Below, in pieces: positions 811 to 58,407 of a DNA stretch of 64,000 bases. The notes under the pieces were generated by a model. It did no database searches. It was not told the DNA's origin and saw nothing but the letters and a program-made list of their open reading frames with translations. The translations under genes and the position numbers were made by a program. Within the stretch, counting starts at the first letter, position 1, and the number at the start of each line of letters is the position of its first letter. The stretch is from Candidatus Aphodosoma sp. Its GTDB lineage: Bacteria > Bacteroidota > Bacteroidia > Bacteroidales > Paludibacteraceae. The stretch lies in NCBI GenBank assembly GCA_045614825.1, contig JAZLDO010000040.1, forward strand, positions 3,815 through 67,814, written 5' to 3'.

Positions 811-896
811 TTAGATATTTAGTAGCGAGTAACGAGTAACGAGACTTGCCATTCAAAATTTTAGATATTTAGTAGCAAGTAGCAAGACTTACCATT
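811..896. repeat. Tandem duplication (about 50-nt period) with different internal 7-mers
   Basis: TTAGATATTTAGTAGCGAGTAACGAGTAACGAGACTTGCCATT (811-853) is repeated as TTAGATATTTAGTAGCAAGTAGCAAGACTTACCATT (861-896). Confidence 0.85.
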
Positions 897-898
897 TT

Positions 899-954
899 AA
901 TTCTCAATTCTCAATTCTCAATTCTCAATTCTCAATTCTCAATTCTCAACTCTC
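899..954. repeat. Heptamer tandem array (AATTCTC)x7 + AACTCTC
   Basis: Counted directly as 8 units of 7 nt. It overlaps the lolD 3' end and supplies the lolD stop codon. Confidence 0.95.
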
Positions 955-1592: not shown

Positions 1593-1603
1593 ATTATAGA
1601 CAT

Positions 1604-1624
1604 GAGATACGAGACACGAGACGA
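1604..1624. repeat. Heptamer array GAGATAC GAGACAC GAGACGA
   Basis: Three 7-nt units directly upstream of the lolD start. Confidence 0.8.
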
Positions 1625-2986: not shown

Positions 2987-3014
2987 AGTGAGGAATTAGG
3001 AGTGAGGAGTTTTT
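2987..3014. repeat. Heptamer array AGTGAGG AATTAGG AGTGAGG AGTTTTT
   Basis: Spans the 12-nt junction of the two chrA halves and encodes the last residues (..TPHS) of the upstream half. Confidence 0.75.
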
Positions 3015-3625: not shown

Positions 3626-3745
3626 ACACACAATGAGAGTGTGTATTTTTAAGGTTCGGTGAAGGTTGCTTGCAGGTTGCTCTATGGTATATTTAAATTT
3701 TGGAAATTTCGAGATTGAATACACAATGAGAGTGTGTGTTTTTGA
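3626..3745. repeat. About 120-bp dispersed element, copy A
   Basis: Two copies of the hairpin unit (GAAT)ACACAnTGAGAGTGTGT + T-run flank the core AGGTTGCTTGCAGGTTGCT. Same organisation and orientation as 14488-14599. Confidence 0.8.
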
Positions 3746-5828: not shown

Positions 5829-5830
5829 TA

Positions 5831-5858
5831 AAGTTGAAAGTTGAGAGTTGAAAGTTAC
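5831..5858. repeat. Heptamer array AAGTTGA AAGTTGA GAGTTGA AAGTTAC
   Basis: Begins 3 nt after the gyrB stop, in the TGA-containing orientation on the plus strand. Confidence 0.9.
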
Positions 5859-7059: not shown

Positions 7060-7070
7060 TCTTTATTAAA

Positions 7071-7098
7071 TGCATAATTCATAATGCATAATTCATAA
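7071..7098. repeat. Heptamer array TGCATAA TTCATAA TGCATAA TTCATAA
   Basis: Lies just after the dnaN stop. A related shorter copy sits at 13578-13591 after obg. Confidence 0.85.
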
Positions 7099-7146
7099 TT
7101 TATGGGTTATGCATTTTTTATATAGACAGGAGATATCAGATACGAG

Positions 7147-7965
7147 ATGCAAGATATTACACCGTACATAAAAAGATTGTTGATGAGCCATATAACAGGT
7201 TTGTCTATGACTCAATTGTTGGCTGAAAGAGATTTATGCCTTTCGGAAGAACAACAAACGTGGTATAATGAGGCTATTGCGAGACTGAAAAACAATGAAC
7301 CATTACAACATGTACTAGGTTATTGCGAGTTTTATGGACGTAAGTTTAAATGCGATGGCAGAGCCCTTGTGCCTCGACCTGAGACTGAAGAACTTGTAGA
7401 GTGGATTGCGTCTAATTGGTCAACAGTCAACAGTCAACAGTCAACAGTCAAAATTCTTGATATTGGTACAGGAACAGGATGTATTGCTTTGTCGTTGGCA
7501 AAGGAGTTGCCTATGGCTAAAATTATAGCATTGGATATATCGAAAGAGGCTTTAAGTCTTGCGCGTGAAAATGCCGAAATGTTGGAGGTGAAGAATGTTG
7601 ATTTTGCCGAAGGAGATATATTAAATATGGGCGATGAGCATGTGGTGGCAAGAGAAAAATATGCAGTGATTGTAAGCAATCCACCATACGTGCGTGAATG
7701 CGAAAAGGTAGAGATGGAAGCAAATGTACTTGATTATGACCCTCATACTGCGTTGTTTGTATCGGATGAAGACCCCTTAATTTTCTATCGAACTATTGCT
7801 AAATTTGCATTGACACATCTTACACCTAATGGTGCGCTCTATTTTGAAATAAATCAGTATCTTGGTAGGGAGACTTGTGATTTGTTAGTTGCAATGGGAT
7901 ATAGAAATGTAGAGCTGAGAGATGACATTAATGGGAATGCGAGAATGGTAAAAGCCACATTATAA
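7147..7965 (+). CDS. prmC: Release-factor glutamine N5-methyltransferase
   Basis: 272 aa with SAM motif ILDIGTGTGCI and catalytic NPPY (VSNPPYV). It carries an in-frame CAACAGT array at 7421-7448. Confidence 0.85.
   Translation: MQDITPYIKRLLMSHITGLSMTQLLAERDLCLSEEQQTWYNEAIARLKNNEPLQHVLGYCEFYGRKFKCDGRALVPRPETEELVEWIASNWSTVNSQQSTVKILDIGTGTGCIALSLAKELPMAKIIALDISKEALSLARENAEMLEVKNVDFAEGDILNMGDEHVVAREKYAVIVSNPPYVRECEKVEMEANVLDYDPHTALFVSDEDPLIFYRTIAKFALTHLTPNGALYFEINQYLGRETCDLLVAMGYRNVELRDDINGNARMVKATL
7421..7448. repeat. Heptamer array (CAACAGT)x4 inside prmC
   Basis: In frame, encoding ..STVNSQQSTV.. immediately before the SAM-binding motif. Confidence 0.9.
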
Positions 7966-10780: not shown

Positions 10781-10829
10781 AGGTTGAAAATTGAAAGTTA
10801 AAAATTGAAAGATGAAAGTCAGAAATCGC
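10781..10829. repeat. Degenerate heptamer array (AGGTTGA AAATTGA AAGTTAA AAATTGA AAGATGA AAGTCAG AAATCGC)
   Basis: Seven units, 11 nt upstream of the topA start codon. Confidence 0.8.
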
Positions 10830-11110
10830 TGTTTTATAGACAAATAAGTGATTCTCGAAGTAGCCTTTAAGAATAAAATCTCACGACTCAAAATTCAAAT
10901 TTCACATTATATAATATAGGATTTAAAAATTTTTGCAAAGTAACAAAAAGAATTGCATACTGACAACCCTTTGAATAAAATATTTTGTTTTTTTTAGAAT
11001 GTATATAAAAAACAAGTTCGAAGAGATAGATATGGGAAGAAAAATAGAAGGATAGAACGTTATTTTCAAAAGATTTACAAAAAAATACCTTATATCTCAA
11101 AAAAAAGTAG

Positions 11111-12300: not shown

Positions 12301-12335
12301 ATATGAGATTTTAGACTCAAGATTCAAGACTTGTT
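12301..12335. repeat. Heptamer array (..AGACTCA AGATTCA AGACTTG)
   Basis: Lies directly after the adk stop. Confidence 0.7.
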
Positions 12336-12365
12336 TTGGGTATTGTTTTTTGTTTAATTTTTCAA

Positions 12366-12388
12366 ATCTAACATCTAAGATCTAAGAT
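12366..12388. repeat. Heptamer array ATCTAAC ATCTAAG ATCTAAG AT
   Basis: Abuts the obg ATG at 12389. Confidence 0.8.
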
Positions 12389-13573: not shown

Positions 13574-13664
13574 TTAATGCATAATTCATAATTTTATTTG
13601 CAAAAAATAAAAAAAATATAGAATTTTCAAGATTAAAATTTACATTTTACTATAATATTCAAAC

Positions 13665-14487: not shown

Positions 14488-14599
14488 GAATACACACTGA
14501 GAGTGTGTGTCTGTTTTCTACGGTACAGGTTGCTTGCACCTTGCTTGAGGGTAAGGCGAAATTTGGGGTTTGAATACACATTGAGAGTGTGTATTTTTT
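14488..14599. repeat. About 120-bp dispersed element, copy B
   Basis: GAATACACACTGAGAGTGTGTGT ... AGGTTGCTTGCACCTTGCT ... GAATACACATTGAGAGTGTGTATTTTTT. Confidence 0.8.
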
Positions 14600-16184: not shown

Positions 16185-16910
16185 TTATTTCATTAAGTCA
16201 GTCATTGAATAAAAACCTGCAGGTTTGCCAACAAGGAATTCAGCCGCTACCACTGCGCCAAGGGCAAAGCCTTCGCGCGATTTTGCCTCGTGTGTGATAG
16301 TAATGCTATCCACCTCCGAGTCGTATTTTATAATATGAGTACCAGGCACTTTGCCTTCGCGCAAAGCCTCAATTAAGAGTTGAGAGTTGAGAGTTGAGAG
16401 CTGAGAATTGTGCAACACCCACTCCGATTTTCTATCCAAATTCTCCAAGATGCCTTCAGCAAGCGTGATCGCCGTACCACTTGGAGCATCTTTTTTCTCA
16501 GTGTGATGAATTTCGGTCATCGCCACATCATAATTGGCATAACGATTCATCATCTGAGCCAAACGTCTATTCAATTCAAAAAAAAGATTGACCCCCAACG
16601 AAAAATTAGAGGCCCAAAACAAAGTGTAACCCTTTTCTGCTATCTCTTGTTTCAACTCAGGCAACACCGCATTCCACCCCGTAGTACCCGACACCACAGG
16701 CACATCTACTGCCCAAGCCTTACGATAGTTTTCGACAGCCTTCGTTGGAACAGTAAACTCAATAGCTACATCCGCCGAAGCAAATGCCTCAGATTCAAAT
16801 TCTTCTTGATTATCAACATCAACTTTCGACACTATTTCATGTCCTCTCTCAAGGGCAATACGCTCAATAATATGCCCCATCTTACCATACCCTATTAATG
16901 CTATTTTCAT
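16185..16910 (-). CDS. dapB: 4-hydroxy-tetrahydrodipicolinate reductase
   Basis: 241 aa with the N-terminal dinucleotide motif IGYGKMG and EIHHTEKKDAPSGTA. It carries an in-frame heptamer insert at 16375-16409. Confidence 0.88.
   Translation of the reverse strand: MKIALIGYGKMGHIIERIALERGHEIVSKVDVDNQEEFESEAFASADVAIEFTVPTKAVENYRKAWAVDVPVVSGTTGWNAVLPELKQEIAEKGYTLFWASNFSLGVNLFFELNRRLAQMMNRYANYDVAMTEIHHTEKKDAPSGTAITLAEGILENLDRKSEWVLHNSQLSTLNSQLLIEALREGKVPGTHIIKYDSEVDSITITHEAKSREGFALGAVVAAEFLVGKPAGFYSMTDLMK
16375..16409. repeat. Heptamer array (AAGAGTT GAGAGTT GAGAGTT GAGAGCT GAGAATT) inside dapB
   Basis: In frame on the minus strand, encoding ..[11 protein letters not shown].. Confidence 0.9.
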
Positions 16911-16913
16911 ATT

Positions 16914-17954
16914 TTAGTTTTCTCTTATATAATCCAACGCCTCAAAAATCTCTTCTTTTGTAACAATCTGATTTATACGCACATCTCCAACACCAGCAAG
17001 CAACGTAAAATTTATCACACCACCACTATTTTTCTTGTCGTGCATCATTAATTCATACAATCTATCATACTGCTTACACATATAAGGGAATGCCCCATAA
17101 TACTCCTTTGCGAAAGCCAATATCTGCGACAATATCCTCCTATCGAATTTCAACTTCACAAACGACAAATACAACTCCGCCACCATACCCCACATCACCG
17201 CAAACCCATGCAACATCGGACTACCCACCTCATACGACAACGCCTCAAACGCATGACCTACCGTATGACCAAAATTCAAAGCCTTACGTTGTCCCTTTTC
17301 ATTTGGATCAAGCTCAACAACCGACTCCTTTATATCTAAATTTTGCTTCAACAATAGCGACAATCGTTTCACATCAAAGTCATCCAAATCATAACTCAAT
17401 GTCTGATCCAACAAAATAGAATCCGCTATCAACGCATGCTTCACCATCTCGGCATACCCCGACAATCGATTCCTAAAATCAAGCGTCTCAAAAAAACGCG
17501 TGTCAATCAACACCCTTTCCGCCTTAGCAAACACTCCAATCTCATTCTTCAACCCTCTAAAATTCACCCCCGTCTTGCCACCAGTAGCCGCATCAACCAC
17601 ACCGAGCAACGTAGTAGGAACATTCACAAAACGCATACCACGCTTAAATGTTGCCGCCACAAATCCCCCCAAATCCGTAACAACTCCCCCCCCTACATTC
17701 ACCAACAACGACGACCGAGTTGCTCCATTATCAACCAACACACTCCAAACCTTCACCCCCGTATCCAATGTCTTCACATCATCTCCCACATCAATTTTTA
17801 TAACATACGGACCAAACGCCGACCAATCAATCCTCGAAAAACAATGTTCAGCCGTATTCTCATCAACCAAAACAAACACCCTATCGACAGCTAAAGATTT
17901 AACCACAGCCGCCAACTCCACCTCAACTCTATCCGTTACAACAAAATTACCCAT
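16914..17954 (-). CDS. aroB: 3-dehydroquinate synthase
   Basis: 346 aa with GGGVVTDLGGFVAATFKRGMRFVNVPTTLL, ATGGKTGVN and the metal-binding HTVGHA. Confidence 0.85.
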   Translation of the reverse strand: MGNFVVTDRVEVELAAVVKSLAVDRVFVLVDENTAEHCFSRIDWSAFGPYVIKIDVGDDVKTLDTGVKVWSVLVDNGATRSSLLVNVGGGVVTDLGGFVAATFKRGMRFVNVPTTLLGVVDAATGGKTGVNFRGLKNEIGVFAKAERVLIDTRFFETLDFRNRLSGYAEMVKHALIADSILLDQTLSYDLDDFDVKRLSLLLKQNLDIKESVVELDPNEKGQRKALNFGHTVGHAFEALSYEVGSPMLHGFAVMWGMVAELYLSFVKLKFDRRILSQILAFAKEYYGAFPYMCKQYDRLYELMMHDKKNSGGVINFTLLAGVGDVRINQIVTKEEIFEALDYIREN

Positions 17955-17977
17955 TCCCTATTCCTTATTCTCTATTA

Positions 17978-20917: not shown

Positions 20918-32137
<11,220 letters not shown>

Positions 32138-32378: not shown

Positions 32379-35300
32379 TTATTGAACCACAACGATTCGA
32401 CCCAGATGGATAGCACCTGTACCATCTATCACCCTAACAAGATAAACTCCTGTTGTTGGCAATCCTTCTACCTCTATAGGATAAGTGGTTGGAGTATGTC
32501 GCAATACTACTTTACCCGTAGCGTCAACAACCTCTAACATCAAGCCCCGTTGCTCTTCAGCTGTCCACTCACGATTAATATATGTAGTCGAACCACCCAA
32601 TATAGGGTTTGGCGCTATAACTAAAGACAACACATAAATATCATCGATACCAGTGCCAACTTCAAGCGTGAGATTAACAATCGAGTCACAACCTGCTGCA
32701 GATGTAAACACTTCACGATATTTACCTGCTTTAGTCAATGATTTTTCGCCAAACTCATAGAACTCGCCTTCTGCGATATAAACAATTGTATCAATTTCTA
32801 TTGTTTCTACATAATCGACATAAATATGTACGACCGAATCACACTTATCAGGATAAGAGAATCTTTGAATCAACATCGTATCTTGATATATTGCCAATTT
32901 ATTATAGCCATAACCAGTATATAGTTCACCTTCACAAATATAGTCGTTCTCAATTGTTGGCTCTGGTTCTACTACTGCAAGATGGAGATGTACTGTCGAG
33001 TCGCAACGCAATACGTTTTGGAACACACGTGTAAAATCACCTGCATCTGTCAATATTGTATCAAGGAATTGATAAGTAGATCCAAGACAAATTGTATCGT
33101 AAACTTCAACTTCAGCAGGAAGAACTGTTAATTCCATCACCTCTACCGAATCACATCCTCTGTTAGTTGAATACACTCGCTCGTAACGACCTGATGTAGT
33201 CAAAACAGTATCGAGCCACTCTACTTTATCACCTTCGCACACTAAACGTGTTTCAACAAAATATTTAGGTATTACACTCATAGTGAGTGTGATGATTGAG
33301 TCACAACCTCGACTATTAACCAATGTATCAGTATAAATACCAGCTTCAGTGATAGCTTCATTACCCAACATATAGACGTCCCCTTCGCAAATAGTATCTG
33401 AAATTGCGTATGCAGTTGGCAATACTGTCAATTTAAGACGAACTATACTATCGCAACCACAAGCCGATGTGAGGCGAGCTTCATAATAACCTTCGACTAC
33501 AAGGTTTTTATTCTCGAAAGGAGCTTTATTATACACCTCGCCTTCACAAATAGTGTCATTATACTGATATGTACCAGATGAATTCATTGTCAAATGCAAA
33601 GTTTTCAATGTATCGCACTCACCTACACCACTTGCTTCACACAACATAGTCAATCTGTTTTCTCCTACTTTCAATTTCGAAGAATTAACTTCAAAACCAT
33701 AACGTGAATAAGTAACGGTTCCTTGTAGCGGTTCACAGATAACATCTTCGTAAACTACATTATCAACGTAGCAAATCACTCTGACATCATCGACATAAAC
33801 ATGTGCCGAAGAAGCTTTTGATGCTGTTGAATAGAAGCCAATTTTTATCTCTTTGCCGTTATAGTCTGACAAATCATAACGAGCCAACTCCCAATTATTA
33901 TCTGTACCACCAAAACTATCTAACGTATCAGTTGCAGTAGCTGTAATGACAACTACTTTCAACTGCTCTGTTGGCGAACTATTAGCATAACGGAACGATA
34001 GACTATAATTGCCATCTAACATAATTGATGGTGTTTCCAAAGTTGCATAGCCATTGGTTGATGCACACGACATTCTAACGCAATTGCCATATTCTGAGCT
34101 AATATAACTATAATCATCAATCTTGAATACTGCCCAATTATAGATATTCTCTACTAATGATGTATGTGTTGTATTATCCCAGCACAAAGGTATTTTAGTC
34201 AACTCTTCGCCTTCGAAATCTTCGATAAATGGTGGATAAACCACACCACACATTGTATTGAATACTAATTCAGCCCAATCTGATACAACTCCGTCTTTTA
34301 TTGCTCTAACTCGTGCTTTATATGATGTTGATGCATGCAACCCAGTGATTGAAGCTTTTGTGTCGCTCACTTGGATGGTGTTCACCACCACATTACCTTG
34401 CATAATTTCTACATCATAAAGATCTCCATTGCCCAACCAACAGAGTTCTACACTCGACTCTGTAACTGCATCAACTAATAAATTAACTGGAGTACCCACT
34501 GCTAATGCCTCTACACTGAAGTCATCAATCATCACATTCCATGAAGATGATGACACCTCTCCTTCAATACCTAATTGATATACTCCACTCTCTTCAACAA
34601 AGAGTTCTGCTGCAATTTTTTGATAACCAATATTGCCAACCTCTTCGCGAACTAATATTTCCACCTCACGTTGTGCATTGACAGTTGAAACTAAACTTAC
34701 GTATGCCGACGTTCTATCACTTTGACGAGCATAAACTGAAACTTTATAATATTTACCACCTTCAAGAGCAAAGTCGCGCATAACACGGTTTTTGTTAAAT
34801 CCGCCACGACTTGACAAACTCATGAATTTACTACCTGAATTTGCTGACGCTACTACGCTTGCATCTACGTTGTTAATCAACCAACGATTAGAACCAGACT
34901 CATGATCCTCGGTCCAACAATTACTAAATACATCATTGTCAGAATATGTTTCAAAATCTTCTACAAACAAACCTCCTTCATTGATCACAACGGCTTCGCA
35001 TGTTGTAGTAAATGTAAGTGTTGACCATGGCGATTCCACATCTCCATCACACACTGGACGCACTTTCAACTGGTACTCTGTGTTCGCAACCAAACCACCT
35101 AAACTAATACTATCGCCTGAAACGATACCACTCTCAGTGCCTAATTCCCATTCAACTTCACCAGAACCTGAATTAACGAAATCAACAATTACCGAATCGG
35201 TAGCTACATAACGTAAACTCAAATTGCTCACAACACCACATTCGAATCGTTCAATTCGTATATTATCAATTGACAATGGAGGATTGCTGGCTCCGCTAAC

Positions 35301-38300
35301 GTCATTAGACCATTGCACTACCAAATTATAATTGGTAGGCTCATCGATAGAAACAATAGTTGACTCACTAGTCCAAGCTGGCGAACCTTCCAATTTATCA
35401 TTTTCGTGCAATCTGATATATGTCTCAAGGTTCAACTCATCAGCACCTATTTTATTGCCAGCTGTAACATAAATGTCCATCGGAGCTAAGAATACTCGTC
35501 CAAAATCTCTATTCTCTTCGCCATTAGATTTCCAATCATAAGAGATGATATAATCACCTGCTTCGAACAAGAATGTACGATATGCATAGATGTTTGAACT
35601 TCCATAGTCATAATAGCCATAAACCCCTGTTGCATCAGCTACATACAATGCTTTTTCGCCTGTTTTAACTGAATTGTTGCTATTGCCTGCTATGACAAAT
35701 TTTAGTTGTTCATTCTTAAGTATCCATTCGCTATTCTCTTCATCTTCTTCAAATCCACATATATATGGCAACTCTGGCACATCTTTCATTGTGATAAACT
35801 CTTTTTCAACCCAATCGGTAGCTGTTTGATCTTCACCACAAATCGTACGCATACGCAAAACATATTTAGTGCTACGAGCCAAATCTTTCAATACTAATTG
35901 CTCTGTCAGTGTATCAACATCAAACTTATTGATACCAAGCTCTGAACTCAATTCACATTCATACTTAACAGCTGCTGGTGCATGATTCCATACTGCTACG
36001 GCAAAGGTATCTCCCAACATTTGTATTTTCAAATCAGTAGGAGCGAAACATTCAGGAGCTTTTGAAACTACAATATTGTCAATATATACACTGCTCGTCT
36101 TTGTTGTTCCCTTGAATACGATATACTTGCCCTCTACTTTATAACTTGAAAAATCAATTTGCACTTGTCGCAATAATGAAGAAGCATACAATTCTTTAAC
36201 TTCAACAAATGTTGATTCGTCACTCAAATCACTTTGCAAACCTATTTTGTAGTATGTACCTCCCGACGGGTTGCATGAATTGAATAATATCTGCAATCTT
36301 TCGCCTGGCAAGTTAAATTCTGGCAATGCTAATGCCACATCTTTGTAGAGATGCAATACCTGCTTATCTCCTTCTCCATTACCTGCACGACTCAATTTTG
36401 GATACTCTACACCTAACTCTACCACCGAATTCAATCGTGTATAGCATGATGGGAATGCCATAGGATGATTACCATATGAATTGAACGACTCACTATACAT
36501 CGTTACATCATCGATTGTATAAACATCGCATCGTGTACCAAACAACATAGGTTGAACCCACTCGCCTGTATCAGTGCCACACACACTGCGTGCATATACT
36601 ATATAGTTAGCCCCCTTAGTCAAATCTGTCAACTCTATTGTATCAAGAACACTAACAATACGTGACATCGAATCAAGATCTTGCGTTGCCAAACCATACG
36701 CTAATTGCACTGCGTCTGACTGATATTTCACTGCAACAACCGCCGATGTTTCGTCGGTCGAAATCAACTCTATAGCACGAACATCTGGACATCCTTGAAC
36801 CTCTTCTATCTTAATATTATCTATACATGCATCACCATTATCATACAATGTAGGTCCAACTTTTATTGCAATACGTGCATTTGCAAACTCTGATTCCAAA
36901 ACATTGAATGGAATTCTAACTGTCTCAAACACCTCTTTGTCATTGACATCTTTACGAGGAACGAACGATGGCAATGTAACAACCTCAACAAAAGATGCTG
37001 GATTTGTAGCATCAGTCATCACTCCTACTACAATGTCTGGAGCATAATATGATGTCTGTTTCGACATATAATCCATTGTCAACTGCAACGATGTAGTTGG
37101 AATCTCGAACTGAGGCATAATGACAAACATTGGATAATCCTTAGATGGGAACATCTGTAGCGACTGCTCGCCATCTGAATAGGTTGACCAACTGAGTCCA
37201 CAACTTGGACGCCATTGTTCTGCTGGTTTTTCTGAGAATATTGTATAACAACCCTCATTCACATTGCTAATTTCTTCAAAACTATCATAATATGGTATTG
37301 AGTTAATATCCGCACACAATGTTTTAAACTCAATTTCTCGCCATGAACTTTGCTTGTCGCCACAATTAGTACGAACCTTAAGCGCATAGTTAGTGAATCC
37401 TTTAAGATTATTAATAGTGAATGGATTTTCTGTTACATCAACAATCTCTTCTTCTACAAATCCTTCTTTATTCTTCTCTACTACAACATATTGCCAAGCT
37501 GTTGCTCCTGTTGTATCATTTACTTCTATCGTTACTGAATTACCTCCAATTCCTCTCAAATTCAATGATACTGGACGCATACAGCTCTCTAATTTCTCTA
37601 ACTCAAAACGATTAATAACAACATACGATGTCTCAATGCCCGATGCTGTTGCCTCTATCGATATACGCACAATATTACCTACATAAGCACTCAAGTCAAA
37701 TGTCAATTTTGTGTAATTTGGCAACTCTTTATACCCTTTGCCCAAGACTATTGGATATGTCTCTCCTCCATCTATCGACAATTTTATCGTAACTGTGTCG
37801 GCATAACTATTTGCCAAATTAATTGTCATAACTGCTCCTTCTGTATCACGTAAATCGAATTTTGGAGTCAATATTGTAGCTTTTTCGCCCTCTTTGTTTT
37901 TCTCATTTGTTGGGAAATAGATACGATTATCTCGCTCTACAAACCAACCTCCATTATCCAAATTCTCCCAACACAATGGTATCTCACCATAAGAATAGCC
38001 AGTAAAGTCTTCTAAGTAAGGTAATGCCCACACGCCACACTCGGTAGTAACTGTTCCAACATTAGCTGCTTCGCTCAATTCCGACTCTGAACATACCGAT
38101 TGAATTGTGAAGTCATAAGCTGTTGAGTGCAATAAATTCTCAACTGTCGCTGGATTTGTATTTACTATTGTATCAACCGAAACATGCTCACCACGTTTGC
38201 CTACGATACGCCAACTGCTCTCTTCCCCTTTCGATGTCCAACCTATTGTACAACTATTCTCTGTTACTTCCAAGATTGTTGTTTCTACTGGTTGCTTGCA

Positions 38301-41300
38301 TGTTGGTGCCAATTTTATCTCTACATCATCAAGGCAGAACGAAACATCATCTTGTGGCAAATAAATCACAACATGTTTTGCATCCTTAACATGTTCATAA
38401 TCCGATGTATGCAAATCATTGAAATAAAAACTGAATTTTTCCCACTTCATAGCTTTTTGCACATGATATGTTCCTATAGGCTCAAATCCAGAAGAAATAT
38501 CATCAATTGATGTTGTTACACCTATCGAAATATCCTGATCTGCAGCTGAAGCATAAATCCAACCTTCTATCATATAATCAGCCAATGACTCTACCGCTAA
38601 CTCTGGAGTTACAACAATTGCTTTCGACAAACTCAATGAGTAGTTGCCATCATGCTTTGGATATGTGATTTGATTAACATTTTGATACTCTCCCAAGAAT
38701 ATCCAACAATTAATATCATATTCAAATCCATCTGTCATTGGTAATGATTGTGCCGAACATCTTGTACGGAATGTTCTCACTTCGCTCCATGAGCTCTCTT
38801 CATCTTCACTACACAACGATTTTATTGCATAATAATACTCTTTGTTAGAATCTAAATTCTCTAAATCAGTATATTCTGCAGTAATCTCACCATAGAATAC
38901 ATTACCCATCACGCCTTCTGGTGTAAATGAGAAATCATTAACACTCAACAACCACTTGCCTGCATTCATATCTGTTACTTTAATCGCAGCCGAATTGCTG
39001 GTCAAATTGGCTACTCCCGTTGTAGGAGGCACACAACTTACCTCTTCTATCTTTATATCATCTATACCTATATTAGCCCCTGCATATACTTTTATACCAA
39101 AATAATAAATTCCATCTTCTGGCACTTGGAAATAACCTAAATGCTTAGTCCACTCTTCTTGTATTATCTCTTCAAACAACACAGGTTGCAAACTATCTAC
39201 CACTGGTATTTTAGTATAAGCCAACGATATATGACTTGACGAACTACCACCTTGTATTGCATAAGCCGAGAATTCATAATAAACACCAGCTTTCAACTTC
39301 AATGGTCGATACATCACTGCCGATACACCCGAACTCATCCAAGCATACAACTGACCTGAATTTGCCACCATCGATTGATGTGTTGCATCGCGTTTTTCTG
39401 TTCTGAAATAACCACCTCCATCTTCACGCAAATAGCAACCTGCCAATTGCTGTGCCTCTTGGAACTCCTCAAAGCCTTCCTCTAATGGAGTTGTTTTTGT
39501 TACCTCAAATGGTGTACAATGTGTCTTGATAGTTATTTTTTTAGATGACCAAGCACCCTTCACATTACCACACACCATACGAACATAAACATCATATTCT
39601 GTATCAGTCGATAAACCCGTAACGTCTATAACAGCACTCTCCGATGATATTACCTTACCTGCATCTGGAGCAATTCCAACACCAGTAAAACTTACTTCAC
39701 ACGCAGTCACTCCCTCATCAAGAATCTCTACCTGTGCTGTATATGATGTTACATGATTAATTTTGAAGTCATTGATATTATCACATGCTGGCTTTTCCGA
39801 CACTATCACCTTGTCAATATAATCATGTGCCGAAGTAAACTCTACAGACGTCTGTACAAACAACAAATATTTATTACCAACAGCATCAAAATCTGCTTTA
39901 TATTGATAATAGCCTTTTTTAGTCTCAGCAGGTGTCTCGGTATATGATGTTGGAATATACAACAACTCCTCTGCTCCAACTGTATCTGGCGTGTCATTCA
40001 ACATAACCTTAATACCTCCATCTCCAAAGTTTCGCATCATCATAAACGAAATACGATACTCTTTGTTTTCAGTAAATTTGAACTGAGGTGTCACCAATGC
40101 TTGACCATTACCTGGAGCCTCCAACTGCACACCTGCACCTTCATACATATATTCGGTACGTTCATGTCTTTCTATACTACCTTCTGGAGATGTAGTACTC
40201 CAACATACAGGAGGGAAAGTTGTACCTTCAAAGTTCTCTTCGTATGGCAAAGTTGATACAACATCACACTCTGTCATAAATCTATAATCAAACTCTACCC
40301 AAACCGAAGTGTCGCCCACTCCACAATAACTTGCCACTTTACCCGCAATACGATATTCTGTAGAGTGTGTCAATCCCGACAATTTAAACTCTGGAGCACC
40401 CGACACTGTCTCTTTGCCCGACTTGATTGTTGCAAAATTATCAGGATTTGTCAATCTATAACTTACAACCCAAGAATTTTCATCTTTTCCTTTTGCCCAT
40501 TTCAAACCAAATTCTGTTTGCGTTGGAGCAATCATCTCTATATCTTTAATTTTACGACATGTTGGAGCATCATACACTCTAATATCATCTACATACAAAT
40601 CATACCCTTTTGGCTGAGATTCTGCTTCAATCATAAAATAAACCTCTCCGCTCAATGGAATATTGTAATCGTATTGATACCAACCTGGTGCCTCTACTTG
40701 TGGAGCATGAAACATCGATACATTGATTTCATCCAATACTGTTGCTCCCAATGTGTCTGGTCTATTATTAACTAAGACTCTGAATTTCTCTGGATATACA
40801 ACTCCATCAACCATCACCTCTTTGTCGTGTCTAAATACCCAGAATGAAACATCGTACGAACCTGCAACTTCCATTTGCATCGCTTGTGTGATAATTGCTG
40901 TACGTGTTCCGCCTTTTGTGGCTCTAAATCTCAATACTTTTTGTCCATCTTTTGCTCTATTTTCATAAGAAGCTCCACTATACAAAGACGAAAATGCTGT
41001 TGTATAAATATCCACTCCTTGATCGCCATAATCATCTCCCTCTCCATATCCCTTTACAAATTGCTTAACTTGCCAACAATCTGGAATCAAGCTGTTTGCC
41101 GCCTCGAAACTTTCAGCAAATACATTCGATGCCATAACGTCGCATGCTGTCGTGAATTCCACAGGCAAACTCCATTCTCCTCCCTCCGTTCCAGCACATT
41201 TCGAACGCACTCTAACACTATATCTTGTATTTCCTTCTAATCCTGAAATTGAAACTAATGGTGAAGTTGCCGAAAATTCTTCGCTCTTTATAACTACACT

Positions 41301-42716
41301 GTCTTTTGTAATTTCATATTCATATCTTCCTGCGTTACCAAATTCTGTCCAATGTAAAGTTACTGATTGTGCCAAAATATTTCTTACTTTAATATCTTCC
41401 AAACGTGGACACGCTGGACGCTCTCTCACCATAAAATTGTCAATATACAATCTGTCACTTCCATCAACACCTGCTGGCAATGATATAAACAATGCTAAAT
41501 CCTCTTGATCTCCATAATATGTAACATCCGTACAGAAACGCACTTCATGCCAACCGCTATGAGTGTCAATAGTATCTTCCCAAATAACTTCAAAAGCATC
41601 TGCCGACAATGGATCGACTGTCAAACCTACACTAAATGGCAATCCATAATCACCATAAACCATAAAAGATACCTCTAAATCATTTGCTGCATGAGCAAAT
41701 TGACTTGACACTATATATGCTGTTTTTGAAGCATTACCTTTCATTAACAAAGAGTAACCCACATTATCATATTTAAAAGATGATGTTACCTCTACCCCAA
41801 GCATATTGTCAGGATTCACTAACCAACACATTGGAATAACCTTCGCCTCTGCATCAAAATTCTCACTATAAGGCAATGCTATTGGATCACACAATGTTGC
41901 AAAAACAAACTCTTCTGTATATTTTGACAAACCTTGACTCACCTCTTCACAATCAGAACGCATTACCACAATGTAATTTTTACTACTTTCCAACCCTTCT
42001 ATTGTGAAGAAATATGATCCATCATTCTCAAATCTATAATCATCATAATCACCAACTACTGCACCTGCTTCATCTTTTACTGTAATTCTAAAATGGTCAG
42101 GTGTCGAACCTCCATCCGAATTTACTGCCCAAATAATTGATGCACTATTTTGCGACACCGATACCATCTCTATATCCATCGGATAAGCACAAATCGACAC
42201 ATCTTCTATCGATACTTTATCAAAATAAGCATAACCTCCTGCCGTAGTAGCCTTTCCATAAAATGCTATCTTTATCGTTTTACCAGTATAATTTTTCAAC
42301 GAGTATGTTTTCAACGCCCATGCAGAAGATACCAAATTCGCTTCTAATAAGTTACGAGTTTCTGTACCATCACCATTCAATACATCAACATACACCGAGA
42401 ATTCGGCTGTTTCGTTTTTGAAATAGAAATTCAAATCTTTATCCGATGACAATGTTATCTCTGGTGTACGCAATACACTAAACGTACCTCCAGGATTTGC
42501 ATCAAATCTCATACACATAGCATCAAACGAAGCCTCTTTTTGGCCACGCCACGCGTATGATCCAGAAGCCTGCCCCTCTGTTATACTCCAATCACTTGGT
42601 ATCGCTCGAGCTTTAACATCATTGAAATCTTCATAAAAATTAGATTGAGCATTCAGTTCAAATGCTAAACTCAATAACAATGTAATAATAAGAAAGAAAT
42701 AAGATTTTGTTTTCAT
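32379..42716 (-). CDS. Giant secreted surface protein (3445 aa), collinear paralogue of the 3739-aa protein
   Basis: Uninterrupted 10.3-kb ORF with signal peptide MKTKSYFFLIITLLLSLAFELNAQ. About 11 jelly-roll/FN3-like alternations are followed by seven Cys repeats (32658-33782). The tail ...VIAPNPILGG...GVYLVRVIDGTGAIHLGRIVVVQ lies at 32382-32657. Confidence 0.9.
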   Translation of the reverse strand: MKTKSYFFLIITLLLSLAFELNAQSNFYEDFNDVKARAIPSDWSITEGQASGSYAWRGQKEASFDAMCMRFDANPGGTFSVLRTPEITLSSDKDLNFYFKNETAEFSVYVDVLNGDGTETRNLLEANLVSSAWALKTYSLKNYTGKTIKIAFYGKATTAGGYAYFDKVSIEDVSICAYPMDIEMVSVSQNSASIIWAVNSDGGSTPDHFRITVKDEAGAVVGDYDDYRFENDGSYFFTIEGLESSKNYIVVMRSDCEEVSQGLSKYTEEFVFATLCDPIALPYSENFDAEAKVIPMCWLVNPDNMLGVEVTSSFKYDNVGYSLLMKGNASKTAYIVSSQFAHAANDLEVSFMVYGDYGLPFSVGLTVDPLSADAFEVIWEDTIDTHSGWHEVRFCTDVTYYGDQEDLALFISLPAGVDGSDRLYIDNFMVRERPACPRLEDIKVRNILAQSVTLHWTEFGNAGRYEYEITKDSVVIKSEEFSATSPLVSISGLEGNTRYSVRVRSKCAGTEGGEWSLPVEFTTACDVMASNVFAESFEAANSLIPDCWQVKQFVKGYGEGDDYGDQGVDIYTTAFSSLYSGASYENRAKDGQKVLRFRATKGGTRTAIITQAMQMEVAGSYDVSFWVFRHDKEVMVDGVVYPEKFRVLVNNRPDTLGATVLDEINVSMFHAPQVEAPGWYQYDYNIPLSGEVYFMIEAESQPKGYDLYVDDIRVYDAPTCRKIKDIEMIAPTQTEFGLKWAKGKDENSWVVSYRLTNPDNFATIKSGKETVSGAPEFKLSGLTHSTEYRIAGKVASYCGVGDTSVWVEFDYRFMTECDVVSTLPYEENFEGTTFPPVCWSTTSPEGSIERHERTEYMYEGAGVQLEAPGNGQALVTPQFKFTENKEYRISFMMMRNFGDGGIKVMLNDTPDTVGAEELLYIPTSYTETPAETKKGYYQYKADFDAVGNKYLLFVQTSVEFTSAHDYIDKVIVSEKPACDNINDFKINHVTSYTAQVEILDEGVTACEVSFTGVGIAPDAGKVISSESAVIDVTGLSTDTEYDVYVRMVCGNVKGAWSSKKITIKTHCTPFEVTKTTPLEEGFEEFQEAQQLAGCYLREDGGGYFRTEKRDATHQSMVANSGQLYAWMSSGVSAVMYRPLKLKAGVYYEFSAYAIQGGSSSSHISLAYTKIPVVDSLQPVLFEEIIQEEWTKHLGYFQVPEDGIYYFGIKVYAGANIGIDDIKIEEVSCVPPTTGVANLTSNSAAIKVTDMNAGKWLLSVNDFSFTPEGVMGNVFYGEITAEYTDLENLDSNKEYYYAIKSLCSEDEESSWSEVRTFRTRCSAQSLPMTDGFEYDINCWIFLGEYQNVNQITYPKHDGNYSLSLSKAIVVTPELAVESLADYMIEGWIYASAADQDISIGVTTSIDDISSGFEPIGTYHVQKAMKWEKFSFYFNDLHTSDYEHVKDAKHVVIYLPQDDVSFCLDDVEIKLAPTCKQPVETTILEVTENSCTIGWTSKGEESSWRIVGKRGEHVSVDTIVNTNPATVENLLHSTAYDFTIQSVCSESELSEAANVGTVTTECGVWALPYLEDFTGYSYGEIPLCWENLDNGGWFVERDNRIYFPTNEKNKEGEKATILTPKFDLRDTEGAVMTINLANSYADTVTIKLSIDGGETYPIVLGKGYKELPNYTKLTFDLSAYVGNIVRISIEATASGIETSYVVINRFELEKLESCMRPVSLNLRGIGGNSVTIEVNDTTGATAWQYVVVEKNKEGFVEEEIVDVTENPFTINNLKGFTNYALKVRTNCGDKQSSWREIEFKTLCADINSIPYYDSFEEISNVNEGCYTIFSEKPAEQWRPSCGLSWSTYSDGEQSLQMFPSKDYPMFVIMPQFEIPTTSLQLTMDYMSKQTSYYAPDIVVGVMTDATNPASFVEVVTLPSFVPRKDVNDKEVFETVRIPFNVLESEFANARIAIKVGPTLYDNGDACIDNIKIEEVQGCPDVRAIELISTDETSAVVAVKYQSDAVQLAYGLATQDLDSMSRIVSVLDTIELTDLTKGANYIVYARSVCGTDTGEWVQPMLFGTRCDVYTIDDVTMYSESFNSYGNHPMAFPSCYTRLNSVVELGVEYPKLSRAGNGEGDKQVLHLYKDVALALPEFNLPGERLQILFNSCNPSGGTYYKIGLQSDLSDESTFVEVKELYASSLLRQVQIDFSSYKVEGKYIVFKGTTKTSSVYIDNIVVSKAPECFAPTDLKIQMLGDTFAVAVWNHAPAAVKYECELSSELGINKFDVDTLTEQLVLKDLARSTKYVLRMRTICGEDQTATDWVEKEFITMKDVPELPYICGFEEDEENSEWILKNEQLKFVIAGNSNNSVKTGEKALYVADATGVYGYYDYGSSNIYAYRTFLFEAGDYIISYDWKSNGEENRDFGRVFLAPMDIYVTAGNKIGADELNLETYIRLHENDKLEGSPAWTSESTIVSIDEPTNYNLVVQWSNDVSGASNPPLSIDNIRIERFECGVVSNLSLRYVATDSVIVDFVNSGSGEVEWELGTESGIVSGDSISLGGLVANTEYQLKVRPVCDGDVESPWSTLTFTTTCEAVVINEGGLFVEDFETYSDNDVFSNCWTEDHESGSNRWLINNVDASVVASANSGSKFMSLSSRGGFNKNRVMRDFALEGGKYYKVSVYARQSDRTSAYVSLVSTVNAQREVEILVREEVGNIGYQKIAAELFVEESGVYQLGIEGEVSSSSWNVMIDDFSVEALAVGTPVNLLVDAVTESSVELCWLGNGDLYDVEIMQGNVVVNTIQVSDTKASITGLHASTSYKARVRAIKDGVVSDWAELVFNTMCGVVYPPFIEDFEGEELTKIPLCWDNTTHTSLVENIYNWAVFKIDDYSYISSEYGNCVRMSCASTNGYATLETPSIMLDGNYSLSFRYANSSPTEQLKVVVITATATDTLDSFGGTDNNWELARYDLSDYNGKEIKIGFYSTASKASSAHVYVDDVRVICYVDNVVYEDVICEPLQGTVTYSRYGFEVNSSKLKVGENRLTMLCEASGVGECDTLKTLHLTMNSSGTYQYNDTICEGEVYNKAPFENKNLVVEGYYEARLTSACGCDSIVRLKLTVLPTAYAISDTICEGDVYMLGNEAITEAGIYTDTLVNSRGCDSIITLTMSVIPKYFVETRLVCEGDKVEWLDTVLTTSGRYERVYSTNRGCDSVEVMELTVLPAEVEVYDTICLGSTYQFLDTILTDAGDFTRVFQNVLRCDSTVHLHLAVVEPEPTIENDYICEGELYTGYGYNKLAIYQDTMLIQRFSYPDKCDSVVHIYVDYVETIEIDTIVYIAEGEFYEFGEKSLTKAGKYREVFTSAAGCDSIVNLTLEVGTGIDDIYVLSLVIAPNPILGGSTTYINREWTAEEQRGLMLEVVDATGKVVLRHTPTTYPIEVEGLPTTGVYLVRVIDGTGAIHLGRIVVVQ

Positions 42717-51357: not shown

Positions 51358-52239
51358 ATGAAAATAAAACTAACACTATTTTTACTAACAATCACTCTAT
51401 CGGTTTTCGCACAAGCCGACCCAACCTCAACATCCTCTTCTACTACAGACGAATCTTACAAAATCCCCGATTTAATCGAATTTTTCAACTCATATACTAC
51501 CTTTTCAGAGGGAGAAGAAGAACTCTCAACTTTCAACTCTCAACTTTCAACTCTCAATTCTAAACTCTCAATTCTAAATTCTAAAATTCCCCTCGATTCC
51601 CTCCCCGACTCACTCCATATCGCTTGTACCGACTATCACCCAATAACAACAAGTCAACGCATCACTTCTCGTTTCGGCATCCGTGGTTCACGTTTCCACT
51701 TTGGTGTTGATATCGGTATTCCATACGGCGACACTATTCGTTCTCCATTTTCAGGCACTGTGCGTCTTGCTACATATCAACGAGGCGGGTATGGTCGTTA
51801 CGTCATCATTACTCACGACAATGGACTCGAATCTGTGATGGCTCATTTTTCACGCACTTTGGTCAAAGAGGGACAACAAATCACAGCAGGTCAACCTGTC
51901 GGTTTAGCAGGTAGCACTGGTCGATCTACTGGGTCGCACCTACATCTCGAATTTCGACTATTTGGCAACCAATTTAACCCGGAAAAACTTATTGATTTCA
52001 ATACATTTAAAATCAACACTCAAGACGATGGTTATTATTTCATGACCATTGCCGATACCTATTCTCATCGCCCTCAACTCGAAGAGATGAAGCGTGCAGC
52101 ATACCACCGTGTTCGCTCTGGCGACACCCTTTCCCACATCGCAAAACGCTATGGCACAACGGTCAACCGCCTCTGCTCACTCAACCGAATCAAACCAACA
52201 TCAATCCTCCAAATCGGACAACGCATACGCTATAGATAA
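51358..52239 (+). CDS. M23 family metallopeptidase with C-terminal LysM domain
   Basis: 293 aa with signal peptide ...SVFAQ, M23 motifs HFGVDIG and GSHLHLEF, and Lys[30 protein letters not shown] heptamer-encoded linker lies at 51521-51590. Confidence 0.88.
51521..51590. repeat. Heptamer array, 10 units (AACTCTC/AACTTTC/AATTCTA) inside the M23 peptidase gene
   Basis: In frame, encoding [22 protein letters not shown]. Confidence 0.9.
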
Positions 52240-52240
52240 T

Positions 52241-52310
52241 GAGGAATTGAGAATTGAGAATTGAGAATGGAGAATGGAGAGTTGAGAATTGAGAATGGAG
52301 AATGGAGAAC
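52241..52310. repeat. Heptamer array, 10 units, GAGAATT/GGAGAAT orientation
   Basis: Starts at the M23 gene stop. It is the left arm of an inverted pair with 52846-52943. Confidence 0.9.
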
Positions 52311-52411
52311 CGAAGGTCTTTGAGCCTTTGGCGAAAAAATGTAGAATTGAGAGTTGAAGATCTTTGAGTCTTTGGCGATAAAAATTGAAAAACAAAAGAA
52401 AAATAAAGCAT

Positions 52412-52774
52412 ATGAAACCAAATATTGTTGCTGATAAAAGTAAACTTTTTGCGCTAAGAATCATAAAATTACATTACTTTTTGCTTGAAGAAAAAAAAGA
52501 ATATGTAATGTCTCGCCAAATACTTAAAAGTGGCACAAGTATTGGCGCAAATATTAGAGAAAGTAAAAATGCACAAAGCAACTTAGACTTCATAAATAAA
52601 CTTTCTATTGCCTTAAAAGAAGCTGACGAAACAGCTTATTGGCTCGAACTTCTATCCGAAAGCTCTATAATTGATCAAAAACAATTTGATTCATTATACT
52701 CTGATTTAGATGAAATCATATCGCTGTTAATTTCAATTATAAAAACAACAAAAAATAATATTAACAAGAATTGA
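52412..52774 (+). CDS. Four-helix-bundle protein (23S rRNA intervening-sequence protein / Avd-like family)
   Basis: 120 aa from the ATG at 52412 (the track start 52385 is TTG). Family-typical motifs are present: QILKSGTSIGANIRES....S..DFINKLSIALKEADETAYWLELL. Confidence 0.7.
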   Translation: MKPNIVADKSKLFALRIIKLHYFLLEEKKEYVMSRQILKSGTSIGANIRESKNAQSNLDFINKLSIALKEADETAYWLELLSESSIIDQKQFDSLYSDLDEIISLLISIIKTTKNNINKN

Positions 52775-52845
52775 AAATAAATTTGTTAAGTATGGTAAAT
52801 GCTAATTGAATATAATTGAATGTAATAGAGTGAATATAATTGAGC

Positions 52846-52943
52846 TTTTCTCAATTCTCAATTCTCAATTCTCAACTCTCCATTCTCAATTCCCAATTCT
52901 CCATTCTCAACTCTCAATTCTCAATTCTCAATTCTCAATTCAA
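52846..52943. repeat. Heptamer array, 14 units, AATTCTC/AACTCTC/CATTCTC orientation
   Basis: Ends 1 nt before the lpdA ATG. It is the reverse complement of the 52241-52310 array type. Confidence 0.92.
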
Positions 52944-58386: not shown

Positions 58387-58407
58387 CAACTGACAACAAT
58401 CAACTGA
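58387..58407. repeat. Heptamer array CAACTGA CAACAAT CAACTGA within the 8-bp inverted repeat TATAGTCA/TGACTATA
   Basis: Lies directly after the stop of the 791-aa gene. Confidence 0.7.

Follow-up and report, generated by a model that had tools for sequence, protein, structure and literature searches.

Heptanucleotide repeats have been known since 1990 and, to our knowledge, nobody has shown what they do or why their period is seven. In many bacteria they are the dominant class of long simple-sequence repeats (SSRs), with polymerase slippage as the proposed cause, according to Mrazek 2007 as far as that work is related by MacGregor 2015 (PMC4679880) and Rehm 2015 (PMC4692102). Arrays of the heptamer TAACTGA have been described in Beggiatoaceae, in cyanobacteria and in five Bacteroidetes including Paludibacter propionicigenes. 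In thirteen cases a set of arrays runs across a stop codon; read in reverse, the repeat can be translated (LSVISYQ) and occurs within open reading frames (ORFs) at peripheral positions, and the asymmetry between the stop and the open orientation was taken as a passive constraint (MacGregor 2015, PMC4679880). The GGGAATC/GGGGAYT heptamers of Xanthomonas and Nostoc are 89-93% intergenic, lie at a mean distance of 28 nucleotides (nt) from the 5' neighbouring ORF versus 160 nt from the downstream ORF, form 70-75 convergent inverted pairs per genome and vary in length and sequence between sister species; most of the Xanthomonas repeats are transcribed, no regulatory effect, function or link to gene function was found, and the polarity of the G-rich units, the same as that reported below, was ascribed to G-quadruplexes (Rehm 2015, PMC4692102). 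The present study deals with the heptamer arrays in a stretch of 64,000 nt from Candidatus Aphodosoma sp. (Paludibacteraceae), assembly GCA_045614825.1, contig JAZLDO010000040.1, positions 3,815-67,814 of the forward strand, which is called the window. A first-pass annotation of this DNA knew of no described function for such repeats. As a claim of novelty this was wrong, as both the asymmetry between three-frame-stop and translatable orientations and the overlap of arrays with stop codons are covered by MacGregor 2015 (PMC4679880). On balance it appears probable that the arrays are hypermutable repeats, altered by slippage and exchange and filtered by selection, and not dedicated read-through barriers. 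What is new here is the occurrence of in-frame arrays in four genes, the turnover of junctions among relatives, a nested 30-nt core and the register of the array at the end of lolD.

All coordinates are positions within the window; L-numbers denote compared loci or contigs and P-numbers compared proteins. GyrB of the window is 85% identical to GyrB of a Paludibacteraceae metagenome-assembled genome, and its best matches are all from Bacteroidales. Repeats were detected with Tandem Repeats Finder (TRF) and with our own period scans, which were compared with dinucleotide-preserving shuffles. It was found that 24 of the 70 TRF rows have period 7 or its multiples 14, 21 and 28. Exact arrays of at least 2.5 copies number 11 at period 7 versus 0.25 expected, and there are none at periods 8-12. 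A mismatch-tolerant scan (score of at least 11) gave 12 period-7 arrays covering 507 nt versus 0.00 expected, and 0-1 arrays at each of the other periods from 4 to 12. Period 7 is the sole over-represented tandem period in the window. The excess is also present in related and in metagenomic loci: in a metagenome scan for (TTGAGAR)3, which gave at least 120 loci (757 kb, contigs of 32-71% GC), 275 period-7 arrays were counted versus at most 15 of any other single period.

The arrays are not placed at random. Ten of 14 are non-coding, the non-coding share of the window being 10.2% (p=8e-8). For six of the 14 a gene end is at most 10 nt away, versus 0.76 by random placement and versus 2.2 when the genic or intergenic class of each array is kept (P about 0.011). 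Most arrays are intergenic and stand beside genes of every functional class. In four other Bacteroidales loci (L003, L015, L022, L077) unrelated heptamer arrays begin 5-68 nt past the end of the gyrB match, where about 0.2 would be expected from overall array density and roughly 2 on intergenic DNA alone. The excess over shuffles and the enrichment in non-coding DNA and at gene ends bear out the first-pass annotation in its central claim, that period-7 arrays sit at gene ends. Its statement that they accompany most genes of 0.8-16.4 kb was somewhat overstated: of the 16 junctions in 0.8-16.9 kb, about half carry one.

Comparison with relatives revealed a rapid turnover. In the nearest reference genome (L001) the order lolD-thiF-chrA2-chrA1-gyrB is conserved and the genes are separated by array-free spacers of 13, 6 and 7 nt. 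The matching spacers of the window measure 77, 60 and 12 nt, all with arrays, which speaks for a gain specific to the lineage; the 13-nt spacer is orthologous to the site of the array at 1598-1622 and the 6-nt spacer to that at 2401-2435. After gyrB, L001 has an ordinary hairpin-plus-T terminator where the window has the array at 5830-5856. The contigs of five DapB homologues keep the window gene order. Among relatives the prmC|recX spacer measures 11 or 164 nt, the S26|dapB spacer 13, 11, 257 or 379 nt and the hpt|adk spacer 33, 47, 88 or 163 nt; the aroB|nadA spacer measures 26, 33, 47 and 19 nt in four relatives, with differing units. Whole arrays are present or absent among relatives of 87-99% protein identity, spacers of L448 and L001 being 6-22 nt without arrays, and array density ranges from 0.19 to 0.77 per kb, a four-fold spread among close relatives. 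Both arrays of 7069-7146 are found in L446 with other copy numbers, and the topA leader array is present at other lengths in L445 and L446. At the adk|obg junction the arrays are common to L446, L445 has a different hairpin pair and L448 a 22-nt spacer without array. Between L445 and L450, which are 97.8% identical, every indel of at least 7 nt falls within repeat modules, the sizes being 7 (CTCGTTA), 18, 21 (three units), 28, 30, 36, 48, 57 and 64 nt. Array length across strains, which the first-pass annotation had proposed to compare, does vary at the same junctions in 7-nt steps and in larger ones. Relatives of 90-98% protein identity either lack the arrays of the window at a given junction or depart from it by steps of 7, 21, 30 and 48 nt. 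Assembly artefact, the other concern raised there, is rejected: L450, L451 and L452 were assembled from three different samples and agree at 100% identity over stretches of 5.7-13.3 kb, and since these independent assemblies match through the arrays as well, the arrays are not artefacts.

The arrays of the window, and the repeats associated with them, are as follows.

821-843 and 871-886, plus strand: two copies of a leader module, (AGTAGCG/AGTAACG)3.3 and (AGTAGCA)2.3, from TRF and sequence; 821-886 in the sense of the minus-strand gene starting at about 805 reads (CTCGYTA)n-CTAAATATCTAAAAAT-ATG.
899-954: (AATTCTC)7 and then AACTCTC on the plus strand, (GAGAATT)8 on the minus strand; TRF period 7, 8.0 copies, 97% matches.
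1598-1622, plus strand: (GAGAYAC)3.6, TRF 83%, directly upstream of the lolD start, pyrimidine-rich in the lolD sense.
2401-2435: a 9-mer array, (TCGGACTAG)3.9, ahead of the thiF start, in a position like that of a heptamer array yet not of period 7.
2987-3010, plus strand: AGTGAGG/AATTAGG units, weak (TRF 76% matches), filling the 12-nt chrA1|chrA2 junction.
5830-5856, plus strand: (AAAGTTG)3.9, 2 nt past the gyrB TAA, purine-rich and with three-frame stops in the gyrB sense.
From 7069, plus strand: (AATGCAT/AATTCAT)4.6 after the dnaN stop, pairing with a downstream inverted copy plus T-run (7083-7115).
To 7146, plus strand: GAGATAT/CAGATAC units abutting the prmC ATG, about 2.4 units at 7130.
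7419-7451, plus strand: (GTCAACA)4.7, 33 nt, in frame within prmC.
10784-10826, plus strand: (TTGAAAR) repeated about six times ahead of topA, whose start is 13 nt away; pyrimidine-rich when read with topA.
12301-12388, plus strand: GAGATTT/AGACTCA units behind the stop codon of adk, and (ATCTAAG)3.3 directly before the ATG of obg.
13575-13593, plus strand: (TAATKCA)2.7 after the obg stop, of the family of the 7069-7100 array.
16376-16410, plus strand: (AGAGTTG)5, in frame in dapB, which is read on the minus strand.
17953-17976, minus strand: (ATTCCCT)3.4, occupying the entire nadA|aroB spacer.
25210-25248, plus strand: (TTGAGAG)5.6, in frame in the fn3-rich ORF of 3739 amino acids (aa), which is read on the minus strand.
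51521-51585, minus strand: about nine copies of (AACTCTC), read in frame within the variable N-terminal region of the M23/LysM peptidase.
52244-52309, plus strand: (GAATTGA/GAATGGA)9.4, beginning 5 nt past the M23 stop.
52310-52384, minus strand: two copies of a core of about 30 nt, TTTTTYCGCCAAAGRCTCAAAGAYCTTC(GG), between heptamer units; TRF period 44.
52848-52941, minus strand: (TTCTCAA)13.4, 94 nt, ending 3 nt before the lpdA ATG at 52945, open in all frames.

The genes of the window were identified with Pfam as a lolD-like ABC ATPase gene, thiF, two chrA halves, gyrB, dnaN, prmC, recX, topA, hpt, adk, obg, a NUDIX gene, an S26 peptidase gene, dapB, aroB, nadA, ychF, an M23/LysM peptidase gene, a PF05635 four-helix-bundle gene and lpdA; two giant fn3-rich ORFs are also among the window genes. 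Thirteen array sites had been listed in the first-pass annotation. Those at 899, 5831, 7071, 10781, 12366, 52241 and 52846 are clear. The sites at 1604 (3.6 copies, 83%), 2987 (76%), 12301, 13578 (2-2.7 copies) and 7130 stand but are weak, and their units belong to families seen elsewhere. At 58387-58407 a small inverted repeat is the better reading. The sites at 821-843, 871-886 and 17953-17976, the four arrays inside ORFs and the 9-mer array at 2401-2435 had been overlooked. The stop orientation that it had reported after gyrB and the M23 gene is correct, the arrays beginning 2 nt and 5 nt past the respective stops. It had also taken the ORF that starts at 52840 for a spurious extension of lpdA, and this agrees with the data: the Pfam matches start at residue 38 of the long ORF, LpdA homologues have 444-447 aa in 117 of 120 cases among the matches listed and 448 aa in three, and the 97% identical one has 445 aa. 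Since these lengths fit, the lpdA start is placed at 52945.

Four arrays lie in frame inside ORFs, namely prmC, dapB, the 3739-aa ORF and the M23 peptidase gene. The prmC array codes for STVNSQQSTV, between the N-terminal domain and the methyltransferase fold. The dapB array lies in a surface loop of DapB. Homologues of 88-95% identity have 241-271 aa, and the whole difference is this one loop with other heptamer units and lengths in open frame (a few shorter homologues merely start at an internal Met); a homologue of 61% identity has an ordinary loop at the array position. In the M23 peptidase the array-coded stretch is 22 aa long, and the N-terminal part of the L457 orthologue, judged by eye without alignment, has no array-coded repeat peptide. 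Homologues of the giant ORF are all in frame (3736, 3746 and 3759 aa), as are all DapB variants; in the giant ORF of L450 a 30-nt core stands in frame within the array and adds 10 aa (...NSQLSIFSPKAQRPSVLNSQ...). It follows from these cases that arrays can persist in frame in essential enzymes while the unit changes.

The end of lolD shows how such an array may arise. The array at 899-954 codes for the last residues of LolD, R-V-E-N, and for the TGA, the end reading AGA GTT GAG AAT TGA within the array, just as the first-pass annotation had it. A relative of 78% identity (L459) has no array, and its lolD ends ATT GTT GAA AAT GTT TGA AAA TGA; L001 is likewise without array at this place. In the window the end runs GTT GAG AAT TGA GAA TTG A... 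and is in register with the ancestral V-E-N codons. Since L459 natively ends with GTT GAA AAT where the window has GTT GAG AAT TGA, the array would continue those codons, and its sequence would fit local seeding, in which a 7-mer at the end of the gene itself was duplicated and then expanded. In a relative of 93% identity (L460) the end of lolD carries (AGTTGAR)4.5 in another register, ending K-S-stop. The LolD C-termini among homologues of 88-96% identity are VEN, IEN, LVK, LIKS, VINNE, VISNE, KIIV and KII, and two homologues (P0245, P0259) have array-coded tails of 10 and 26 aa (NAQCTMHNAQ...). Open-orientation arrays are tolerated at the lolD 3' end as tails of 10-26 aa.

Larger modules move together with the arrays. 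A 30-nt core, TTTTTTCGCCAAAGGCTCAAAGACCTTCGG, is nested in TCTCAA-type arrays in a single orientation throughout. Two copies stand at 52310-52384 of the window, four relatives have it between the S26 peptidase gene and dapB, and it also lies in the giant ORF of L450 (sites outside the window: L450 1351-1380, L445 about 10840-10870, L196 about 1003-1032) and, judged from the peptide SPTAQRPSV, within the DapB loop of P0058. The core holds a small hairpin, CCAAAGG...CCTTCGG, and strains as close as 97.8% identity differ in whether they carry it. A leader module, (CTCGYTA)n-CTAAAAATCTA-(N4-6)-ATG, is found ahead of at least five different genes, among them adk, dapB and the S26 peptidase gene in L445/L446 and the post-lolD gene in L460 (about 2300-2380). 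It is often tandemly duplicated in units of about 50 nt, as at 803-898 of the window, and stands before unrelated genes in this lineage only. The recurrence of core and leader module therefore suggests that arrays which share units also exchange or acquire neighbouring sequence, and the arrays appear to act as landing sites for the core.

The arrays change fast by replication slippage, as the 7- and 21-nt steps between relatives display, and they also gain and lose larger modules, as seen at the same junctions. According to the reading favoured here, these modules may be exchanged between arrays with shared units, and some arrays may have been seeded from a gene's own 3' end, such as the GTT GAR AAT codons of lolD. 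Selection would purge arrays that disrupt proteins; arrays would therefore accumulate in junctions, many of which are merely 6-22 nt long in array-free relatives, and, in frame, in permissive loops. A stop triplet in the unit closes all three frames because 7 and 3 are coprime, and the opposite orientation may be fully open. This coprimality would filter which orientation may overlap which gene end, by arithmetic and with no dedicated barrier. Among the three roles that the first-pass annotation had offered, a slippage or insertion process is the sole one that is backed, by the differences of 7, 21 and 30-64 nt at the same junctions of close strains.

A number of observations weigh against this reading, and they are gathered here. 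Some array positions are conserved across divergence (lpdA leader, prmC peptide, topA leader). The peptide of the prmC array, WSTVNSQQSTVK, is identical in L446 despite 77% overall protein identity, and the lpdA leader array is kept in L455 (97% LpdA identity, about 5 units) and in L457 (82%, TTAATTS units) and is absent from L456 (84%). Identical units together with the 30-nt core recur at unlinked loci, which pure local slippage would not predict. TTGAGAR may be a preferred unit, at most few-fold and not decisively so: in viral contigs it gave at least 120 matches versus 17, 60 and 48 for three permutations of the same composition. There is also a genuine strand polarity, common to these arrays and the described heptamer families, for which the frame filter gives no explanation.

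The polarity was studied in a large sample of 845 arrays of at least 21 nt, whose loci were chosen by purine-rich units and in which genes were called crudely, as longest non-overlapping ORFs, with one shadow-ORF error at lolD; this crudeness, too, counts on the adverse side. Co-directional junctions have no net bias, the closed reading agreeing with the direction of the genes in 110 cases and opposing it in 94. Closed arrays were nearer the upstream stop in 86 cases and nearer the start in 24, and open ones nearer the downstream start in 70 and nearer the stop in 23 (Fisher p=1.6e-14). The asymmetry between stop and open orientation that had been noticed in the window is thus statistically real far beyond it. 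However, since stops are purine-rich triplets, "closed" and "purine-rich" were confounded in the examples on which that claim was built. Scored by purines, the coupling is as strong as that scored by stops. It is kept among arrays without an inverted partner, of which those purine-rich in the sense direction were near a stop in 103 cases and near a start in 31, and the pyrimidine-rich ones in 22 and 60 (p=4e-13). Units with the same stop behaviour on both strands, which are small classes in the sample, kept the polarity: the purine-rich ones were near a stop in 31 cases and near a start in nine versus one and 19 (p=5e-8), and among units closed on both strands the counts were 18 and four versus zero and 14 (p=1.6e-6). 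The coupling of position and orientation follows purine richness rather than stop codons. The purine-rich strand follows stops and the pyrimidine-rich strand tends to precede starts; in the window this is seen at gyrB, M23 and lolD on the stop side and at lpdA, topA and lolD on the start side. Divergent spacers break the start-side rule (13 versus 24). In inverted pairs the purine-rich arm is 5' in 72 of 77 and, after de-duplication by flanks, in 39:1 (p=7e-11), and in pairs of the symmetric-stop classes it comes first in 8:0. A reading-frame filter as the full account of orientation is ruled out by this same polarity in symmetric-stop units.

The comparison shows the three-frame-stop property, and the G-quadruplex property invoked for the Xanthomonas units, to be special cases of a more general purine/pyrimidine polarity. 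We entertain, tentatively and as the less probable case, that heptamer arrays form a sequence-independent, strand-polar class of elements, in which the purine-rich strand runs 5'-3' away from the gene 3' end by one common cause, be the units G-rich as in Xanthomonas or AT-rich as here, and at any host GC content from 32 to 71%. Such a cause could be a transcript-level role (terminator, 3'-end stabiliser, leader), for example a bidirectional terminator or 3'-end structure with its 3' arm in a weak rY:dR hybrid, or a polar mode of synthesis, such as addition of repeats at 3' ends that are then joined head to head. If true, the dominance of 7 nt among bacterial SSRs would become directly testable, and the Paludibacteraceae strain series with its nested core and in-frame dapB arrays would be a natural experiment.

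Among the rival explanations, the one that survives best is that the arrays are functional intercistronic RNA or DNA elements, such as bidirectional terminators or attenuators, stabilisers of 3' ends like REP elements (repetitive extragenic palindromes) or unstructured leaders; we hold it to be rather improbable. Shine-Dalgarno-independent initiation is typical of Bacteroidota, and this is the context of the leader idea. The inverted pairs, whose purine-rich arm so regularly lies 5', fold strongly: the 15 that were folded gave -30 to -66 kcal/mol, except one with unrelated arm units (-20), in contigs of 42-70% GC. The suggestion in the first-pass annotation of transcription or structure punctuation may hold, inverted pairs forming strong hairpins of fixed polarity. 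The array after dnaN amounts to a hairpin and then a T-run, the array after gyrB occupies the place of the canonical terminator of L001, the module with CTAAAAATCTA precedes at least five different genes, and the lpdA leader is kept in place at 82-97% LpdA identity. Most Xanthomonas heptamers are transcribed, but no regulatory effect was found there (Rehm 2015, PMC4692102). Moreover, the same junctions are array-free in the close relatives L448, L001 and L456 with no compensating element, units and copy numbers drift freely, arrays also lie within housekeeping ORFs, and no Rfam family matched anywhere in the window at gathering thresholds.

It is unlikely that the arrays represent a mobile or actively synthesised mosaic element, made by an enzyme like that of a miniature inverted-repeat transposable element (MITE) or a REP-associated tyrosine transposase (RAYT), or by strand-specific addition of repeats at DNA ends; in the latter variant, head-to-head joining of such ends would yield the fixed purine-first polarity, for which the 39:1 bias of inverted pairs speaks. 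The same units with the core at unlinked loci in one orientation, in the giant ORF of L450 and in DapB of P0058 as elsewhere, the strain insertion polymorphisms of 30, 48 and 57-64 nt, the spread of TTGAGAR arrays over contigs of 32-71% GC in excess of the permuted controls, and the PF05635 gene, which lies between convergent arrays and is absent at the L457 junction, would fit as well. Convergent arrays do flank variable cargo, reaching from 13 nt up to the PF05635 gene, but no transposase, target-site duplication, fixed or otherwise defined termini were seen at the loci examined, and none of the 29 window ORFs scanned with Pfam is a Y1-transposase or RAYT-type gene. The PF05635 gene has no general link to arrays (one weak case in 120 metagenome loci), control heptamers give tens of matches and many units behave alike, and ordinary recombination between arrays would move cores too.

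A dedicated translational read-through barrier, in which stop-orientation arrays after genes would end ribosomes in every frame, is very unlikely, and this role proposed in the first-pass annotation is not supported. It would account for the excess of closed arrays at stops, since of the arrays that overlap the stop or start within 10 nt of it 95 are closed and 13 open, and for the 82 cases in the large sample in which a gene takes its stop codon from an array, as lolD does in the window and in L460. However, the excess is gone at 11-60 nt (36 closed, 33 open) and is reversed at 61-200 nt (19 closed, 57 open), half of the arrays at co-directional junctions are in the open orientation, and the bias tracks purine richness even when both or neither of the orientations has stops. 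Relatives do without the arrays, open arrays are tolerated at the lolD 3' end, and an ordinary stop codon already stands ahead of several arrays, as after gyrB and M23. The asymmetry is taken as a passive constraint by MacGregor 2015 (PMC4679880) as well. That the arrays are contingency switches, one unit more or less turning the gene of the giant surface protein or of the M23 peptidase off and on, would suit their presence in the 3739-aa fn3-rich ORF and in a secreted M23/LysM peptidase, but this is rejected as very nearly excluded because the giant ORF is intact in all relatives (3736, 3746 and 3759 aa) and DapB variants are all in frame, and arrays lie also in housekeeping dapB and prmC and mostly between genes of every functional class.

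Some further observations concern the region from the M23 gene to lpdA. A PF05635 gene (23S rRNA intervening-sequence protein, Avd-like four-helix bundle) lies at 52385-52774, between the two, and is bracketed by the convergent arrays at 52244-52309 and 52848-52941, the two largest. In L457/L458 (LpdA 82% identical) the M23 gene is followed directly by lpdA across a 72-nt spacer with no PF05635 gene between, and the gene would therefore be a lineage-specific insertion. A PF05635 homologue in L021 also begins right after an array. As a general carrier of arrays the gene was rejected: phmmer gave four matches among ORFs of at least 50 aa in the window and L001-L200, one of them array-adjacent (L021) and another a weak match in the 120 metagenome loci. 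From its sequence context it is kept as a putative local insertion only. Downstream of lpdA there is a "Kinase-PolyVal" protein gene, PF18762 (54516-55382), and then several ORFs without Pfam match up to 64 kb, with long spacers of 618 and 875 nt in 55.4-64 kb; L457 has a different region here, with a Zeta-toxin-like gene. Downstream of lpdA the window thus possibly contains an island that is variable or mobile.

In the rest of the window, a 21-nt palindromic repeat, GAATACACAnTGAGAGTGTGT, occurs at 3717-3737, 14488-14508 and 14572-14592, three copies versus 0 expected, and T-rich tails come after two of them. Possibly this repeat forms a family of its own, akin to REP elements or to terminators and without relation to the heptamers. 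The giant ORFs lie on the minus strand at 20918-32137 (3739 aa) and 32379-42716 (3445 aa); the fn3 label of the first rests on weak fn3 matches in the orthologue of relatives. They are followed by a gene with an OmpA domain and by a pair of ORFs, each about 1100 aa long, without Pfam match. The GC skew is -0.2 to -0.4 across 16-52 kb, presumably a coding-strand effect. No replication-strand rule for the arrays is visible within the 64 kb, TTGA-class arrays being of mixed orientation on the plus strand.

The arrays have consequences for annotation: they produce spurious N-terminal extensions, as at lpdA, make C-termini variable, as at lolD, and may interrupt contigs. In the relative with 97% LpdA identity (L455) the contig starts 30 nt ahead of the lpdA leader array, and it is suspected that assembly from short reads breaks at such arrays and that metagenome bins contain too few of them. 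Many strains of this Bacteroidales lineage that differ at single arrays are already present in public metagenomes.

How the arrays compare with other repeat families can now be stated. REP/BIME elements of enterobacteria and BOX elements of pneumococci also lie at operon junctions or after genes, vary in the number of modules including hairpins and differ between strains, and REP hairpins stabilise upstream mRNA. They differ in being single palindromes where the arrays are tandem 7-mers, and the arrays of the window enter ORFs in frame. Contingency-locus SSRs of host-adapted pathogens likewise have units that are not a multiple of 3 and are sometimes found in surface-protein genes, but here no out-of-frame alleles were seen and the arrays are mostly between housekeeping genes. 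The STRR (short tandemly repeated repetitive) sequences and the long SSRs of Mrazek are alike in being intergenic, dispersed over many loci and made of few unit families per genome; STRR repeats belong to heterocystous cyanobacteria, whereas the window is from Bacteroidota and lacks the STRR1-3 units as such. Arrays of the CAACAGT type, present at 7419-7451 and in DapB loops of relatives, have what we take to be the STRR3 unit.

For the Xanthomonas and Nostoc heptamers, the polarity in the large sample matches that of Rehm 2015 (PMC4692102). Their units are G-rich and those of the window AT-rich, and none of the TRF-listed units has GGG runs, whereas a G-quadruplex takes at least four G-tracts of at least three G. 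Since the AT-rich window units are without G-runs, the common polarity cannot be an effect of G-quadruplexes. With the TAACTGA repeats the likeness covers several features: both are tandem heptamers, mostly intergenic and a few nt from starts, with three-frame stops in the forward orientation, often over the upstream stop, with a reverse orientation that is translatable and found in ORFs at permissive places, and with strain indels in 7-nt increments. The differences lie in the units, TTGAGAR, GAGAYAC, AGTARCG, GCATAAT and others in the window, where many unit families coexist and TAACTGA is found in 0 of 70 TRF rows, and in the placement, since most TAACTGA arrays of Candidatus Maribeggiatoa (BOGUAY) are forward and just upstream of starts, whereas in the window the purine-rich or closed orientation stands at stops. 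With their period-7 excess, preference for gene ends, polymorphism in 7-nt steps and strand polarity, the arrays belong to the heptanucleotide long SSRs, a kind already described, of which those in this Paludibacteraceae lineage are a dense and fast-moving instance.

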